NCBI GenBank assembly: GCA_963734455.1 | Contig: CAVTHC010000004.1 | Location: forward strand, 1,852-65,851 | Origin: Terriglobia bacterium | GTDB taxonomy: Bacteria > Acidobacteriota > Terriglobia > Terriglobales > Acidobacteriaceae | DNA: 64,000 nucleotides | Direction of reading: 5' to 3' | Shown: positions 2,389-25,742 of the stretch, one piece after another | Layout of the letters: each line of letters opens with the position of its first letter | How positions within the stretch are numbered: the stretch's first letter is position 1 | Position numbers and translations under genes: made by a program | The notes under the pieces: generated by a model | Database searches by the model: none | What the model was told of the DNA's origin: nothing | The model's input: only the letters and a program-made list of their open reading frames with translations

Positions 2389-2463
2389 TCCTCAGTAGCT
2401 CAATGGCAGAGCACCCGGCTGTTAACCGGGGGGTTGTAGGTTCGAGTCCTACCTGAGGAGCCA
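2389..2463 (+). tRNA. tRNA-Asn (anticodon GTT), CCA encoded
   Basis: Hand-folded cloverleaf: acceptor TCCTCAG/CTGAGGA, D arm GCTC-AATGGCA-GAGC, anticodon arm CCCGG-CTGTTAA-CCGGG, variable GGGTT, T arm GTAGG-TTCGAGT-CCTAC, discriminator G, then CCA. Confidence 0.9.
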
Positions 2464-2465
2464 TT
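2441..2465 (+). repeat. attL core (25-bp direct repeat, copy 1) overlapping the tRNA-Asn 3' end
   Basis: TTCGAGTCCTACCTGAGGAGCCATT occurs again exactly at 25425-25449. Confidence 0.8.
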
Positions 2466-2508
2466 CTTTCAATGGCTTACGCCAGCCTGCAATCACTAGC
2501 GCAATCAG

Positions 2509-3615
2509 TTAAGCGGGTCGGCTCAATGCCAGCCCCACAATCTTGGAGTGCGCCTGCCCCATCTCGTCGGTCACAACGTCGCCATAGATGTTCATCGTCG
2601 TTCTGATGTCGCTATGCCGCATCAGCTTTTGTTGAACAGCGATTGGAGTCCCGACGGCATCCAGCCAGCTACGGTAGGTATGCCGAAAGGCGTGAGTGCC
2701 GAGATGCCCGATTCCCGCTTCCTTGGTTGCCCGCTCAAGTTCGCGCCAAAACCCCGTGTACGAATAGGGAAGGCGGCCCCGCTTCAAAGGGCTGGCAAAG
2801 ATCCAGTCCTCTTCGGCTGAGAATTGCGTGGTCTGCTTCCAGACCCGTAGTACCTCCAGCAGGCCCTTGTCGATTGCCAGGGACTTGCGAGACGAATCGG
2901 TCTTCACATCATCCACAATCTGCTTGACGATGCCCCGCTCAATGTTCAGCTTGGCACCGAGCCAGTCCACGTCTCGCCACTTCAGGGCAAGCAGTTCTGA
3001 GACTCGCAATCCCAAACAGACTGACACCAGAGCCATCGTGTTGAATGGTGTCTTCAGGAATGCAATCAGTCTCTGGAACTGCTCCACAGTGAGGCTTCGC
3101 GGTTTGCGAATCCGTCTTGTAGTACCCTTCACCACTACAAGGTCGATGGGGTTGCGTGCCACTTCCAGCACACCGCACCACATCGCAAACTCCATCAAGG
3201 CGCGAAGCAAGTTGCGAACGTGAGACCTGCTCTTGGGTGACAAATCGAGCTGGCGAAGCCAGAGTTCAACGGGTCTCGGCTGTACGTCACTGATAGACTT
3301 GTCGCCCCAGTGAGGCAAAATGTGGTTACGCAGCCATGAGCGATACACGCGAGAGGTCTCTGAACGCGACGGCATCCTTTCGGATTGGTAACGTTGAGCC
3401 AACTCTTTCACCGTGTGCGCTTGGCTGCTTGGTTTATTGACAACCGTCTGACGAAACGACTCTGCTGCTTGCCATGCGGCTGTCTTCGTTGGAAAGTCGC
3501 GTAACGAACCGATCAACTTGGTTCGGCGGACTCCGTTTTCGCAGAATAGGTAATTCCACACCCTGCGTCGCTTATCGCAAACAACAGATCCCTGCTTGTG
3601 CCGTGCTCGTTTCAT
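2509..3615 (-). CDS. tyrosine-type site-specific recombinase (phage integrase family)
   Basis: 368-aa ORF. C-terminal catalytic region HAFRHTYRSWL...LMRHSDIRTTMNIYGD (H-x-x-R and catalytic Y). Lies next to the tRNA gene. 4-nt overlap with the upstream excisionase-like ORF. Confidence 0.9.
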   Translation of the reverse strand: MKRARHKQGSVVCDKRRRVWNYLFCENGVRRTKLIGSLRDFPTKTAAWQAAESFRQTVVNKPSSQAHTVKELAQRYQSERMPSRSETSRVYRSWLRNHILPHWGDKSISDVQPRPVELWLRQLDLSPKSRSHVRNLLRALMEFAMWCGVLEVARNPIDLVVVKGTTRRIRKPRSLTVEQFQRLIAFLKTPFNTMALVSVCLGLRVSELLALKWRDVDWLGAKLNIERGIVKQIVDDVKTDSSRKSLAIDKGLLEVLRVWKQTTQFSAEEDWIFASPLKRGRLPYSYTGFWRELERATKEAGIGHLGTHAFRHTYRSWLDAVGTPIAVQQKLMRHSDIRTTMNIYGDVVTDEMGQAHSKIVGLALSRPA

Positions 3616-3983
3616 AGTCTCCTTTCGTTAGCGAGCACGGACGGCTGCGCCGAGCTTACCATAGGTTTCTTCTGGACTACGGCTGAGTCCAGATCCGATT
3701 GCAGGAAACGCCAGACTCGGCGCTGCGTGCCAGTGAGTGCGTAGGCTTTCAGTCTGCCTTGTCGCGCCCACAGCAGAATCGTGCGCACCTTGAAGTTGAG
3801 GTATTGTGCCGCCTCTGAGGCGGTTAGCCAGGTCGGGCGTTCCGCGTCGAACGGACCTCGGGCGACGGATTGACCGGAAGAGCGGTTAGGTTCAGAGGGT
3901 TGGGATTGTGGACACATGTTTGACTCCGTGGCGGCGGAGGCCGCCGTACAATTGATATTTCGCTTTTCTTCTTTCGCTTCCAT
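3612..3983 (-). CDS. excisionase-family helix-turn-helix DNA-binding protein (start may be the internal Met at 3917)
   Basis: C-terminal segment WLTASEAAQYLNFKVRTILLWARQGRLKAYALTGTQRRVWRFLQSDL resembles excisionase/MerR-type HTH proteins. Translationally coupled to the integrase. Confidence 0.6.
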   Translation of the reverse strand: MEAKEEKRNINCTAASAATESNMCPQSQPSEPNRSSGQSVARGPFDAERPTWLTASEAAQYLNFKVRTILLWARQGRLKAYALTGTQRRVWRFLQSDLDSAVVQKKPMVSSAQPSVLANERRL

Positions 3984-4140
3984 AGTTGCGGGTTGAATTG
4001 GAACCGCGAAGGTTCAGTCAAGGGCGAGCGGAGGGAGCCGCGCCAGCGGGCCTGCCCCTTGACGGGTTCTTCGCAGTTCCGGTTGCGTTCATGTGGAAGC
4101 GAAAGAAGACGTTGGATGCGTGGGATGTTGTTTGTGCGCT

Positions 4141-23544: not shown

Positions 23545-24284
23545 ATCTCATCGAGTTGAATCGTGCTTTACGACAACTGCGGCTGGGTGGAATCGCGACT
23601 GTGCTCGAGATGCGTCTGCACCAGGCTCAGGTCGAATCCATGGCACCCATCGACCTGATCTCCTGCCTGGTCGCGGACGAACTCACCCGTCGTGGCGACC
23701 GTTTGCTGGAACGTCGGCGAAAGCAAGCTCAGTTTCGCGATCCGCAAAAAACCCTCGAGAACTTCGACTTCACCTTCAATCCCAAGATGAATCGCAGTTT
23801 GGTTTTCGATCTGGCGACCGCTGCCTTCATCGCCCGCCACGAAGACTCACTTTTGGTCGGCCCACCCGGCAGCGGCAAAAGCCATCTGGCACAAGCCATC
23901 GGGCTGGCCGCCATCCAACAAGTCTATCGTGTGCTCTACCGCGAGACCCATACCTTGCTCGACGAACTCGCCGAAGCCTCGATCGACGGTACGCGCAAAC
24001 AGCACATCGAGTCTCTGGTCACTGTACCCTTGCTGATCATCGATGACTTGGGCATGCGGAAGTTATCCCTCACCGCCGCCGAGGAACTCCTGGAGATCAT
24101 CATGCGACGCTATGAGCGAGCTAGCACAATGATTACTTCGAACCGACCCGTCGATGACTGGGGGAAACTGCTGGGCGACAGCGCAGCGGTTACCGCCATG
24201 CTCGATCGCCTGCTGCATCATGGGCACGTTCTGAAATGCGGTCCACGCAGTTGGCGCACAAAAACAGGCTTGCCACCACAGTAG
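23541..24284 (+). CDS. istB: IS21-family helper ATPase IstB
   Basis: 247-aa ORF with Walker A GPPGSGKSHL and Walker B LLIIDDLG. Typical IstB length and position. Confidence 0.9.
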   Translation: MNLIELNRALRQLRLGGIATVLEMRLHQAQVESMAPIDLISCLVADELTRRGDRLLERRRKQAQFRDPQKTLENFDFTFNPKMNRSLVFDLATAAFIARHEDSLLVGPPGSGKSHLAQAIGLAAIQQVYRVLYRETHTLLDELAEASIDGTRKQHIESLVTVPLLIIDDLGMRKLSLTAAEELLEIIMRRYERASTMITSNRPVDDWGKLLGDSAAVTAMLDRLLHHGHVLKCGPRSWRTKTGLPPQ

Positions 24285-24351
24285 GTGGCAGGATAGAACA
24301 AACTTAGTCTTGGACTCTTCGAAAGTATGGCCGGTTTTGAACTGATCATGT

Positions 24352-25216
24352 ATGGCCGCTTTTCAGGCGATCACTGAGGCCATTGCACGCCTTGCGGACG
24401 AAGAGAGGGATGCGTCACGGTTCTTCACTAATACCGGGCGCATGATAGGTCCGATACAGCGGGTGAATGTTGACCTGGCGTCGGGCATGCTGGAAGAGCT
24501 GGCCAGGGCTGCCACCAAACGCGTGTATCTCTGGTGCTTTGTCGTCGTTCTTACCTCTGGCATCGCATTGCGTGTTGAAGCTGCACTCTACGCACGCCGA
24601 ATTGTCTCTGTCGTGAGGATGCTCTCCACCTTACGAATTGGGGAAACCTCTAAGGCCGAAACATTGTCGCGAATGCCAAGTCTGCGGCCACGGGACCTTA
24701 CGGCGCACCTCGCTGCGATGCGGACGAGTGTTTCTCCGCTGGAGTGGAAAATGGCGTGCCAGGCCGTCTGTTGTGGAGAACCGGTAACGATCTTCTTTCG
24801 CATGTCTTGCGTGGGTGGGTTTTCGTGCCGAGAGTCTCGGCATCTACGTCAACTTCACATCAGGAAAAGTCTCGTATTTTAGCTACCACCTGATGGTATC
24901 GGCACCAGGCGTGCCGCCACCACTTCCCCCTCCACCACCGGATGGGAAACTCGGGCTCGTGGTGATTGGGCTGAGTTCTCAGAGGGTGATCAATGTCAGA
25001 GACCAGAGCTCGACAGTCAAGGTGCATCCGCCGTACTATATTCCCTCCTCCCAGGCCGTGTCGTCACAGAGCATCGGAATTGGCTTGACTCCCAATGCTC
25101 CCGAAGAAATCGTGCAGAGTGCCTTCGACTTGCGGCTTAACTGCATCTGGAGTTTCGCAGGGTGCCGGCGCTGGAGCGAGCTTCTGCCATCCATTGAACC
25201 GTTGACGCGGAAGTGA
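24352..25216 (+). pseudogene. hypothetical gene interrupted by the IS21 element and carrying a further frame break near 24815
   Basis: ORFs 24352-24882 and 24815-25216 overlap in different frames. The N-terminal codons appear to lie left of the IS (ATG at 21649). No family recognised. Confidence 0.35.
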
Positions 25217-25415
25217 TTGGCGAAGTCCCCATTACGCTCACAATCCCATCGGGGCACTAAGCAGGCGGCGCTGCCTCGGGCGTACGCTTACGTCGGTAGT
25301 GCAGTTTTAGTCTCGGAATTCTGCAATCAGTTTGCAATCACTTAACGTGGACTACCGGGTACTCCCATGTCCTTAAAGCGCCGTCCGTGCTCTGTAAGTC
25401 CTTCCATTGACGTTT

Positions 25416-25742
25416 TCAGGTGGATTCGAGTCCTACCTGAGGAGCCATTTCTCTCCCGATTTTCCAGCCGCTTACGTTGAATCCCACGCCGGTGGCCCAC
25501 GCAGGCCCGGTTCTGGCTTGCGTGGGTATGATTGGCGATGCCGGGCATTTCTTCAGAGCGATACTTTGCGCGGAACTGCGGACCGTCCGCCCACCGGCCT
25601 GGTCTTTTGCTACCCATCGGCGGTCGCGATGCGGATTGGTTCGCGGCAGGCCGGTGCTAAGTTCACACTTCTCGCCCGGAGCGGCTCCACAAGTCGGACA
25701 GCGAACGGCGAGTACCTGCTTCGGGCTGAATACTTTGGCCAC
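25416..25742 (-). CDS. possible small zinc-ribbon protein (only the N-terminal ~45 aa look protein-like)
   Basis: N-terminus is MAKVFSPKQVLAVRCPTCGAAPGEKCELSTGLPRTNPHRDRR (CxxC...C...H). The remainder is low-complexity and the ORF ends inside the attR repeat. Confidence 0.3.
   Translation of the reverse strand: MAKVFSPKQVLAVRCPTCGAAPGEKCELSTGLPRTNPHRDRRWVAKDQAGGRTVRSSAQSIALKKCPASPIIPTQARTGPAWATGVGFNVSGWKIGREMAPQVGLEST
25425..25449 (+). repeat. attR core (25-bp direct repeat, copy 2)
   Basis: Exact copy of 2441-2465 (the tRNA-Asn 3' end) without the rest of the tRNA. Confidence 0.8.

Follow-up and report, generated by a model that had tools for sequence, protein, structure and literature searches.

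Genes and features of the locus

We analysed a 64,000-nucleotide stretch of DNA (the window) from a metagenome-assembled genome (MAG) of the class Terriglobia, phylum Acidobacteriota (G000; 4.71 Mb in 16 contigs, 90.7% complete). Near its left end an intact tRNA-Asn gene is followed by an island of 22,984 bp, which is flanked by two copies of a 25-bp sequence and carries genes for a tyrosine integrase, an excisionase-type protein, a MOBF relaxase and an RHS protein. Table 1 lists the features. It is likely, with a probability of roughly 0.8, that the island is an integrative mobilizable element (IME) inserted site-specifically into the 3' end of the tRNA-Asn gene.

Table 1. Target tRNA and features of the island, in window coordinates (aa, amino acids; HTH, helix-turn-helix; oriT, origin of transfer)
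Feature	Position	Strand	Evidence
tRNA-Asn (anticodon GTT), intact, integration target	2389..2463	+	ARAGORN
attL core, 25-bp direct repeat (tRNA 3' end plus 2 nt)	2441..2465	+	Repeat search, empty-site alignment
Tyrosine integrase (int), 368 aa	2509..3615	-	Pfam Phage_integrase 84 bits
Excisionase-type HTH protein (xis), 123 aa; stop overlaps int start	3612..3983	-	HTH_17 44 bits; TIGR01764 excisionase 37 bits, above cutoff; PHROG excisionase
orf283, all-helical, C-terminal transmembrane helix	4141..4992	-	Conservation across related loci
ParA/MinD-like P-loop ATPase, 263 aa, GGKGGVGKT Walker A	4989..5780	-	Weak CbiA/ParA, ParA_partition and TraL matches; PHROG ParA-like 2e-8
hth151, small HTH protein	5787..6242	-	Weak HTH_38 match; homologs in 45 loci
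Divergent intergenic region, candidate oriT	6243..6480	+	Alignment across family, covariation
MOBF (TrwC/TraI-type) relaxase with SF1B helicase, 956 aa	6481..9351	+	TrwC 257 bits; AAA_30 144 bits; NF041492 MobF 219 bits (cutoff 100)
Full-length RHS protein: DUF6531, YD repeats, RHS core, 123-aa tip with HxxxxxxD...HxH	9838..13911	+	Profile searches
Candidate immunity protein, 209 aa, N-terminal signal peptide; overlaps rhs stop	13902..14531	+	Position
Orphan rhs C-terminal cassette with a different tip	14625..16685	+	Repeat comparison, profile searches
Polytopic membrane protein, candidate immunity protein for orphan tip	16697..17200	+	Position, inferred role
Second, inverted oriT-like copy with GGGATGGTGTCTT at 17773-17784 (minus strand)	17763..17870	-	Inverted repeats I2/I3, alignment A1
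Pseudogene relic: xis C-terminus and about 100 aa of the N-terminus of a tRNA-Phe-type integrase	17987..18408	-	tblastx/tblastn
Two secreted/lipoprotein cargo genes: 125 aa (weak Big_2) and 523 aa	18524..20488	-	ORFs
Fragment of about 40 nt from a tRNA-Phe 3' half, relic att core	21351..21392	+	95% identity over 40 nt to tRNA-Phe of 7 related loci
IS21-family insertion, 2,680 bp; istA 21811-23544, istB 23541-24284	21699..24378	+	IstB_IS21 211 bits, rve, Mu-transposase C-terminal domains, inverted repeats I1/I4
Conserved right arm (with 21390-21698), adjoins attR	24379..25424	+	90-94% identical to right end of the 18.3-kb sister element in G241
attR core, second 25-mer copy, without tRNA body	25425..25449	+	Repeat search, empty-site alignment

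Boundaries and the empty integration site

The two copies of the 25-mer TTCGAGTCCTACCTGAGGAGCCATT lie 22,984 bp apart. The left copy covers the T-arm, the 3' strand of the acceptor stem and two further bases, and the right copy stands alone, with no tRNA body around it. No further copy was found in the window with up to three mismatches (0 expected from shuffled sequences) or in the whole host assembly with up to two, and ARAGORN reports one tRNA in the entire window, the tRNA-Asn of Table 1. The original prediction, made from the letters of the window alone, had described a perfect repeat at these positions with no tRNA body at the second; both statements are borne out, and the repeat is unique to the two ends in window and genome.

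It had also proposed a search of relatives for an empty tRNA-Asn site, and such a site was found. The left and right island flanks were searched against 24 genomes of the same genus, 22 of which contain the tRNA-Asn with its conserved upstream flank. In G008, the closest relative sampled, the tRNA-Asn (...GAGCCATT) runs straight into the sequence to the right of window position 25449, with flanks that are 91% (tRNA side) and 88% identical; the alignment gives the junction ...GAGGAGCCATT|TCT..AGCCGCTTAC common to G008 and the window. The site in G008 is therefore an empty attB, and it follows that the island measures exactly 22,984 bp and that its boundaries are exact. Other inserts occupy the same tRNA in G003 (two of them), G022, G023 and G024, each closed by a copy of 25-46 nt of the tRNA 3' end, and the relaxase of the island was not found in these four genomes. 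The tRNA-Asn site is a general integration hot spot. Between the window and G008 (contig C329), the tRNA also shows compensatory paired changes in the anticodon stem (CACCCGG...CCGGGGG against CATTCGG...CCGAAGG) and is otherwise identical.

Backbone genes and candidate oriT

The backbone (2466-9351) consists of six open reading frames (ORFs), all intact, arranged divergently around an intergenic region of 238 bp. The relaxase gene points rightward and the other five, hth151, the parA-like gene, orf283, xis and int, lie on the minus strand; the stop and start codons of hth151/parA, parA/orf283 and xis/int touch or overlap. The relaxase is the only TrwC match in the genome. Its match to PF08751 spans profile positions 3-283, the histidine triad HHDTSRELDPQLHTH and an N-terminal DYY are visible, and the C-terminal helicase part matches AAA_30, UvrD_C_2 and RecD2/TraA_Ti.

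The other genes of the module are less familiar. The ParA-like ATPase matches the NCBIfam model of TraL weakly (E=8.5e-4, far below the cutoff). Homologs of orf283 adjoin the ParA-like gene in most of the 71 related loci described below, 56 of which gave a usable ORF. No orf283 family was found in Pfam or PDB, profile searches returning coiled-coil noise only, and no homolog was found among 72,556 plasmids; an AF2 (AlphaFold2) model consists of long helices (pLDDT 67, pTM 0.28). From its position and conservation, orf283 is a candidate adaptor between relaxosome and membrane, and hth151, which always adjoins the oriT motif, is a candidate oriT-binding accessory factor. A perfect inverted repeat of 16 nt was also noticed in this part of the island, with its left arm (TCTTCTTTCGCTTCCA, 3967-3982) in the first xis codons and its right arm (TGGAAGCGAAAGAAGA, 4094-4109) in the spacer that separates orf283 from xis; an inverted match of the region to itself is seen in the related element L129 as well. 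It may be a regulatory site or an arm site of Xis/Int.

The divergent region is our candidate oriT. From left to right it contains phased CCGG(A/T) repeats (6330-6393), an 8-bp hairpin (6420-6438) and the invariant 12-mer GGGATGGTGTCT (6437-6448). The 12-mer is unchanged in ten close relatives (alignment A1) and occurs once per locus in 50 loci; we estimate the chance expectation at about 0.1 matches over all of them. It lies 44 nt ahead of the relaxase gene in the layout typical of Terriglobales, and behind the relaxase gene on the other strand in that of Bryobacterales; from the coordinates, in both layouts it is upstream of the hth151 homolog, on the opposite strand. The hairpin on its 5' side is 96.7% paired over 30 sequences, and at three of its pairs both bases have changed in a compensatory way. 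Its covariation score, which derives from few independent events, was not reached by any shuffle, and when the 3' partners are slid, the pairing of 96.7% drops to 67% or less. The arrangement of a hairpin ahead of ...GTCT resembles the TrwC site of R388, and nicking is predicted just 3' of GTGTCT.

The second, inverted oriT-like copy carries the same motif, and the hairpin ahead of it differs in sequence from the first. Directly downstream of this copy, where a relaxase start would be expected, is an ORF of 143 aa (17342-17773, minus strand), which showed no similarity to TrwC or to families in Pfam, NCBIfam, PHROG and PDB sequence searches.

Search for type IV secretion genes

An integrative and conjugative element (ICE) is recognized by genes for a VirB4-family ATPase, for a coupling protein and for a mating pore, and none of this set was found in the island. 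Hidden Markov models (HMMs) of VirB4 (PF03135), VirD4/TraG (PF02534) and TrwB (PF10412) have no match in the whole assembled genome. The tblastn queries were five VirB4 and five type IV coupling proteins (T4CPs) from true acidobacterial ICEs; these ten proteins gave no match in the window and a single fragment of 63 aa elsewhere in the genome. Among the island ORFs, no FtsK/HerA-type domains were found besides the relaxase helicase and IstB. The features of an IME are seen: att repeats with an empty site in a relative, an integrase and excisionase of its own, its own relaxase and a conserved candidate oriT with a predicted nick site, and no VirB4 or coupling protein. An element with relaxase and oriT that has neither channel nor coupling protein is a canonical IME.

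These results agree with the original prediction. None of the three outcomes that it named as refuting it was seen: the 25-mer has no copies at other loci, a close relative has the empty site, and no T4SS or coupling-protein gene was found inside the repeats. The tyrosine integrase, excisionase-like, ParA-like, HTH and MOBF relaxase genes that it named were all recovered by profile searches; of the type IV secretion system (T4SS) genes, those for VirB4 and VirD4-type coupling proteins were found between the repeats by neither kind of search; and its choice of an IME over an ICE is supported by a relaxase and oriT that come without channel or coupling protein.

Related elements in Acidobacteriota

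A search with the relaxase yielded 71 related loci, mostly in MAGs of Acidobacteriota (Terriglobales/Acidobacteriaceae, Bryobacterales and Solibacteraceae). The MFD soil series is the source of many of these MAGs, and other phyla are named in the titles of a few matches that are short or distant. The ParA-like gene (50-97% identity), orf283 (31-97%) and hth151 (31-93%) are also present in most of the loci, and the gene order follows one of two fixed layouts, divergent or colinear. A tRNA gene was found upstream of the module in 34 loci, at about 4 kb in the Terriglobales layout, and it may be that of Asn, Phe, Met, Leu, Cys, Ser, Lys, Gly or His. Except for the tRNA-Asn group, the integrases of the other loci are only 21-38% identical to that of the island. 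Since one module is shared by loci with unrelated integrases at nine or more tRNAs, we regard it as a mobilization module that is combined with interchangeable integration modules. In 12 related elements, the cargo was found to comprise, among others, genes for Fic, SIR2, dynamin-like GTPases and kinases, together with insertion sequence (IS) elements. In L050 (5826-21300), two elements of the family are apparently in tandem at a tRNA-Phe, where a further int/xis pair comes after a second tRNA-Phe 3' fragment (19678-19718), an example of accretion. No published description of this acidobacterial family was found in the literature searched.

VirB4 or T4CP genes are within 10 kb of the module in only two of the 71 loci. 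In L060 (16526-22587, Bryobacterales), the module is followed by an ISL3 transposase and then by a truncated VirB11-like gene, VirB4 and TrbL/VirB6, and this locus may be an ICE form of the family or a neighbouring helper; in L054, a T4CP gene is about 9 kb from the module. We also examined an even sample of 201 genomes from the class. A close relaxase (at least 58% identity) is present in nine of them. Three of the nine have any VirB4 or T4CP, located on other contigs or more than 700 kb away, and six have neither, including G191, which is 99% complete in 2 contigs. For distant TrwC genes (31-33% identity), a T4CP is commonly within 1 kb and several have VirB4 at 10-15 kb; these loci are ordinary ICEs or plasmids. 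T4SSs are found in 12 of 28 genomes of the host's family, and being so common there, they indicate that helpers circulate. When compared with the 72,556 plasmids, the relaxase has a best match of 33% identity, and conjugative plasmids account for 4,810 of its 5,000 best matches.

Signs of transfer between species

A sister element is present in another MAG, G241 (loci L043/L127). It occupies the same tRNA-Asn, has a length of 18.3 kb and carries entirely different cargo: it matches window positions 51-9358 and then the right arm (21390-21699, 24381-24514 and 25317-25449). The integrases of the two elements are 98% identical in amino acid sequence. Synonymous divergence (dS) between G241 and the window is 0.49 in the flanking prolyl-oligopeptidase gene and 0.00-0.19 in the six backbone genes. 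For a second host (L081), the flank gives 0.87 and the backbone 0.19-0.49. Backbone values so far below those of the flanks mean that the element is younger than the split of the hosts and crossed species recently; the comparison of sequences thus points to recent interspecies transfer of the backbone. The ratio of nonsynonymous to synonymous divergence (dN/dS) is 0.08-0.41 for every gene with a computable ratio (0.31 and 0.08 for the integrase), and xis shows no synonymous differences in the closer pair. Judged from the genes with a measurable ratio, the backbone is under purifying selection.

Within the genus, the relaxase gene occurs in two of 24 species and is broken in both. The two copies (G021:C42:213238-216103 and G019:C159:8168-10806) are split into 2 or 3 frames at 92% and about 60% identity, and they are decaying copies of the element.

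Cargo, relics and base composition

The cargo occupies positions 9352-21350. The listed ORF of the main rhs gene begins at a TTG (9838); the probable start is an ATG at 9949, followed by a Sec-type signal peptide. RHS_repeat (247 bits) and TIGR03696 (82.6 bits at residues 1156-1234) are matched, and the core ends in DPLGL with the tip after it. As single sequences, neither the main tip nor the orphan tip matched Pfam, NCBIfam, PHROGs or PDB. For the main tip, however, 269 homologs were found in a library of 1.84 billion proteins. In 37 aligned homologs H68, D75 and H115 (tip numbering) are invariant and H113 is at least 90% conserved. Their profile matches Hedgehog N-domains across the H-x6-D motif (E=0.002) and the D-Ala-D-Ala carboxypeptidase 1lbu (E=0.8), both of the LAS fold, and Peptidase_M15_3 is matched weakly by five of the 37 members. 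An AF2 model built from a 3-row alignment (pLDDT 63) has Hedgehog-N as its top Foldseek match and MepA at a lower rank, with non-significant values (E about 0.2). The tip is probably a LAS-type zinc peptidase that would act on cell-wall peptides.

By its position and signal peptide, the 209-aa protein fits a periplasmic immunity protein, and neither of the two immunity candidates has a family in Pfam, NCBIfam, PHROGs or PDB sequence searches. The orphan cassette repeats the main gene over 1,181 bp (14689-15869 against 11891-13071) at 99.7% identity, and the pair is a classic substrate for tip exchange. Elsewhere in the genome there are three weak RHS-repeat matches, in open frames of 440-468 aa, and no T6SS (type VI secretion system) sheath gene (VipB/TssC) was found in the genome. 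The original prediction of an RHS toxin/immunity locus as cargo is correct as far as the locus is concerned, and the word "arsenal" is too strong for one main gene and one orphan tip. An RHS toxin gene is indeed carried by a probable IME, as the suggestion of mobile interbacterial weaponry had it; with a Sec signal on the protein and no T6SS sheath gene found in the genome, its delivery route, and with it a role as a weapon between bacteria, is hypothetical.

About half of the variable part consists of relics of another element, two secreted proteins and the IS21 insertion. Neither secreted cargo protein has a homolog in the 71 related loci, and the 523-aa protein and the ORFs of the right arm have no match in Pfam, NCBIfam, PHROGs or PDB searches. 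The integrase relic, which lacks the catalytic domain, is 49% identical over 104 aa to integrases of tRNA-Phe elements. The tRNA-Phe fragment was considered as the mark of a nested intact element, and this was rejected: only the int N-terminus and the xis C-terminus survive, and there is no second backbone. The sister tRNA-Asn element has a tRNA-Phe 3' fragment about 65 nt ahead of the same right arm, and circularization places the right arm, the Asn core, int and xis next to one another. We infer that an ancestor carried a Phe-specific integration module, that an Asn-specific one took its place, and that the old core was left as a scar.

The IS21 insertion is flanked by an 8-bp target duplication, GCCATTGC, at 21691-21698 and 24379-24386; a shared GAG can be assigned to the inverted repeat or to the duplication, so that 8 to 11 bp are possible, and 8 bp was adopted. 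It is present in a single copy in the genome, and the sister element has the uninterrupted site. The terminal-repeat motif AAAA[GC]CGGCCATA recurs inside istA (21990-22190), beside a short repeat of the CAACCCCA type.

The GC content is 56.5% in the island, 60.2% in the genome and 60.8-60.9% in the window flanks, so the composition of the island is mildly foreign, about 4 points below the genome. A contrast of 42% against 70% had been put forward from single 60-nt lines. These are real extremes and the island is indeed lower, but they are unrepresentative: the means of the lines in the two stretches compared are 52% and 62%, and the contrast between island and genome is about 4 points rather than about 27.

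Beyond the right end of the island, a 556-aa protein (28823-30493) fuses a response-regulator receiver to a pyridine-nucleotide-disulphide oxidoreductase. Its gene is downstream of a second oxidoreductase gene (27258-28373) and of a CRP-type regulator gene (25799-26494).

Proposed mechanism and alternative explanations

Excision and helper-driven transfer of the island are predictions from its gene content. In the mechanism that we propose, hth151, the parA-like gene, orf283, xis and int would form one leftward operon, transcribed from the divergent oriT/promoter region, and excision and DNA processing would thereby be co-regulated. Int and Xis would excise a circle by crossover inside the 25-bp core. 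The HTH protein would bind the phased CCGG repeats, and the relaxase would bind the hairpin and nick just 3' of GTGTCT. The ParA-like ATPase and the membrane-anchored orf283 product would then help to bring the relaxosome toward the envelope, a step analogous to that of VirC1 of Ti plasmids or TraL of IncP plasmids. Coupling protein and T4SS channel would be supplied in trans by a co-resident ICE or plasmid, and in the recipient the integrase would re-insert the circle into tRNA-Asn. The DNA from the end of the relaxase gene up to the right arm would serve as replaceable cargo, with the orphan tip available for tip-switching, and IS21 has since landed in the right arm.

Several points weigh against the reading as a functional IME. 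There is no helper T4SS in the genome, and for the element to leave this cell, a helper would have to arrive or be encoded in the roughly 9% that is unassembled. The roles given to the ParA-like protein, orf283 and hth151 come from position and conservation. IS21 breaks the conserved right arm, and the function of the arm might be impaired. With T4SS genes near the module in L060 and L054, some members of the family may be ICEs or lie beside ICEs.

Alternatively, the island could be the remains of an ICE: it would formerly have been self-transmissible, and the loss of its T4SS and coupling protein would have turned it into a fossil that no longer moves. Besides the T4SS genes downstream of the module in L060 (VirB11', VirB4 and TrbL), this would account for the int'/xis' relics, the second oriT copy and IS21 in the cargo, and for the broken relaxases of two species of the genus. 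Nevertheless, 69 of the 71 members have no T4SS genes within 10 kb, which makes the relaxase-only state a design of the family rather than a local loss; all six backbone ORFs are intact, their measurable dN/dS values indicate purifying selection, and interspecies divergence is lower in the backbone than in the chromosome of the hosts. We therefore consider a fossil unlikely. The same low standing is given to an excisable plasmid-like episome, in which the relaxase would be a rolling-circle initiator, the ParA-like protein and orf283 would serve partition, and the spread would be by transformation or transduction. ParA-type ATPases are typical partition proteins, some ICE relaxases drive replication after excision, and according to Guedon et al. 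(2017, PMC5704250), IMEs probably rely on plasmid-like strategies of maintenance. However, orf283 is a membrane-anchored helical protein and not a ParB-like DNA binder, and a full TrwC-type relaxase-helicase with a hairpin and a nic-like site is an architecture of conjugative transfer. A role in maintenance would add to mobilization and would not exclude it.

An IME depends on a helper, and this dependence can itself be questioned. The module could be self-sufficient or use a conduit other than a T4SS, with the ParA-like protein and orf283 in place of the coupling protein and with no canonical helper. Six of the nine genomes with a close relaxase lack VirB4 and T4CP, including the 99% complete genome in 2 contigs, in spite of the recent spread between species, and orf283 has no known family and no plasmid homolog. 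But the module encodes no component that forms a channel or pumps DNA, IMEs are known to wait silently for incoming helpers, and T4SS elements are common in the same bacterial family (12 of 28 genomes). Among the explanations weighed here we find this one the least probable. Only a little more credit, still that of a long shot, goes to the broader proposal that the ParA-like/orf283/HTH/TrwC module as a whole replaces the coupling protein, either docking the relaxosome on diverse foreign T4SSs or using a non-T4SS conduit. If true, it would account for the spread of a relaxase-only family among acidobacterial species, most of whose genomes with the family have no T4SS or T4CP. The helper-dependent IME remains our preferred interpretation.

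Comparison with known systems

Acidobacteriota are among the most abundant soil bacteria, and their mobile elements have hardly been described. The family is a concrete vehicle of gene flow, competition toxins included, in a phylum that is hard to culture, and a defined pair of oriT and relaxase could become a genetic tool. Because MOBF relaxases are overwhelmingly found on self-transmissible plasmids, a MOBF family that lacks a coupling protein offers a useful way to study the recruitment of foreign T4SSs by relaxosomes.

When compared to canonical IMEs such as NBU1 and Tn4555 of Bacteroides and IMESag-rpsI of Streptococcus (PMC5704250), the island agrees in having an integrase and excisionase, its own relaxase and oriT, no mating-pore or coupling genes, variable cargo and an insertion at the 3' end of a conserved gene. 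It differs in its MOBF (TrwC-type) relaxase with helicase, its host in the Acidobacteriota and the additional ParA-like ATPase and membrane-anchored helical protein. According to Guedon et al. (2017, PMC5704250), the canonical IMEs known in 2017 used MobP, MobQ, MobV or MobC, and none used MobF or MobH. MOBF IMEs of the traACD type, of which three occupy tRNA-Asn, were later described in Mesorhizobium (Colombi et al. 2021, PMC8627217), and expression of their excision factor was proposed to be coupled to the relaxase locus (PMC8627217). They resemble our element in being chromosomal and tRNA-integrating, with divergent accessory genes and no complete T4SS. On the other hand, they have a Ti-plasmid-like TraA with TraC and TraD, whereas the island has a TrwC/TraI-like relaxase and unrelated accessory genes, a comparison made by description only.

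The island relaxase shares with TrwC of R388 and TraI of F the N-terminal TrwC domain and the C-terminal SF1B helicase, and probably also a hairpin immediately 5' of a short conserved ...GTCT; unlike theirs, it has no adjacent coupling protein, and it is at most about 33% identical to plasmid relaxases. As with VirC1 of Agrobacterium and TraL of IncP plasmids, a ParA-like ATPase is found within a module for DNA transfer and replication, but homology to the island ATPase is established for the P-loop only, and orf283 is unlike VirC2. For the cargo, the closest parallels are the enterobacterial Rhs proteins and WapA of Bacillus, with the same YD shell, a core ending in DPLGL, a variable tip, an adjacent immunity-like gene and an orphan tip with, here, a 1.18-kb repeat. 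The RHS protein of the island differs from them in its N-terminal Sec signal and DUF6531 in place of a PAAR or VgrG-linked domain, and its gene lies inside an IME in a genome without a T6SS sheath gene. Taken together, the elements are an undescribed family of a known type, the IME; their pair of accessory genes is unusual, and the island adds an rhs locus as mobile cargo.

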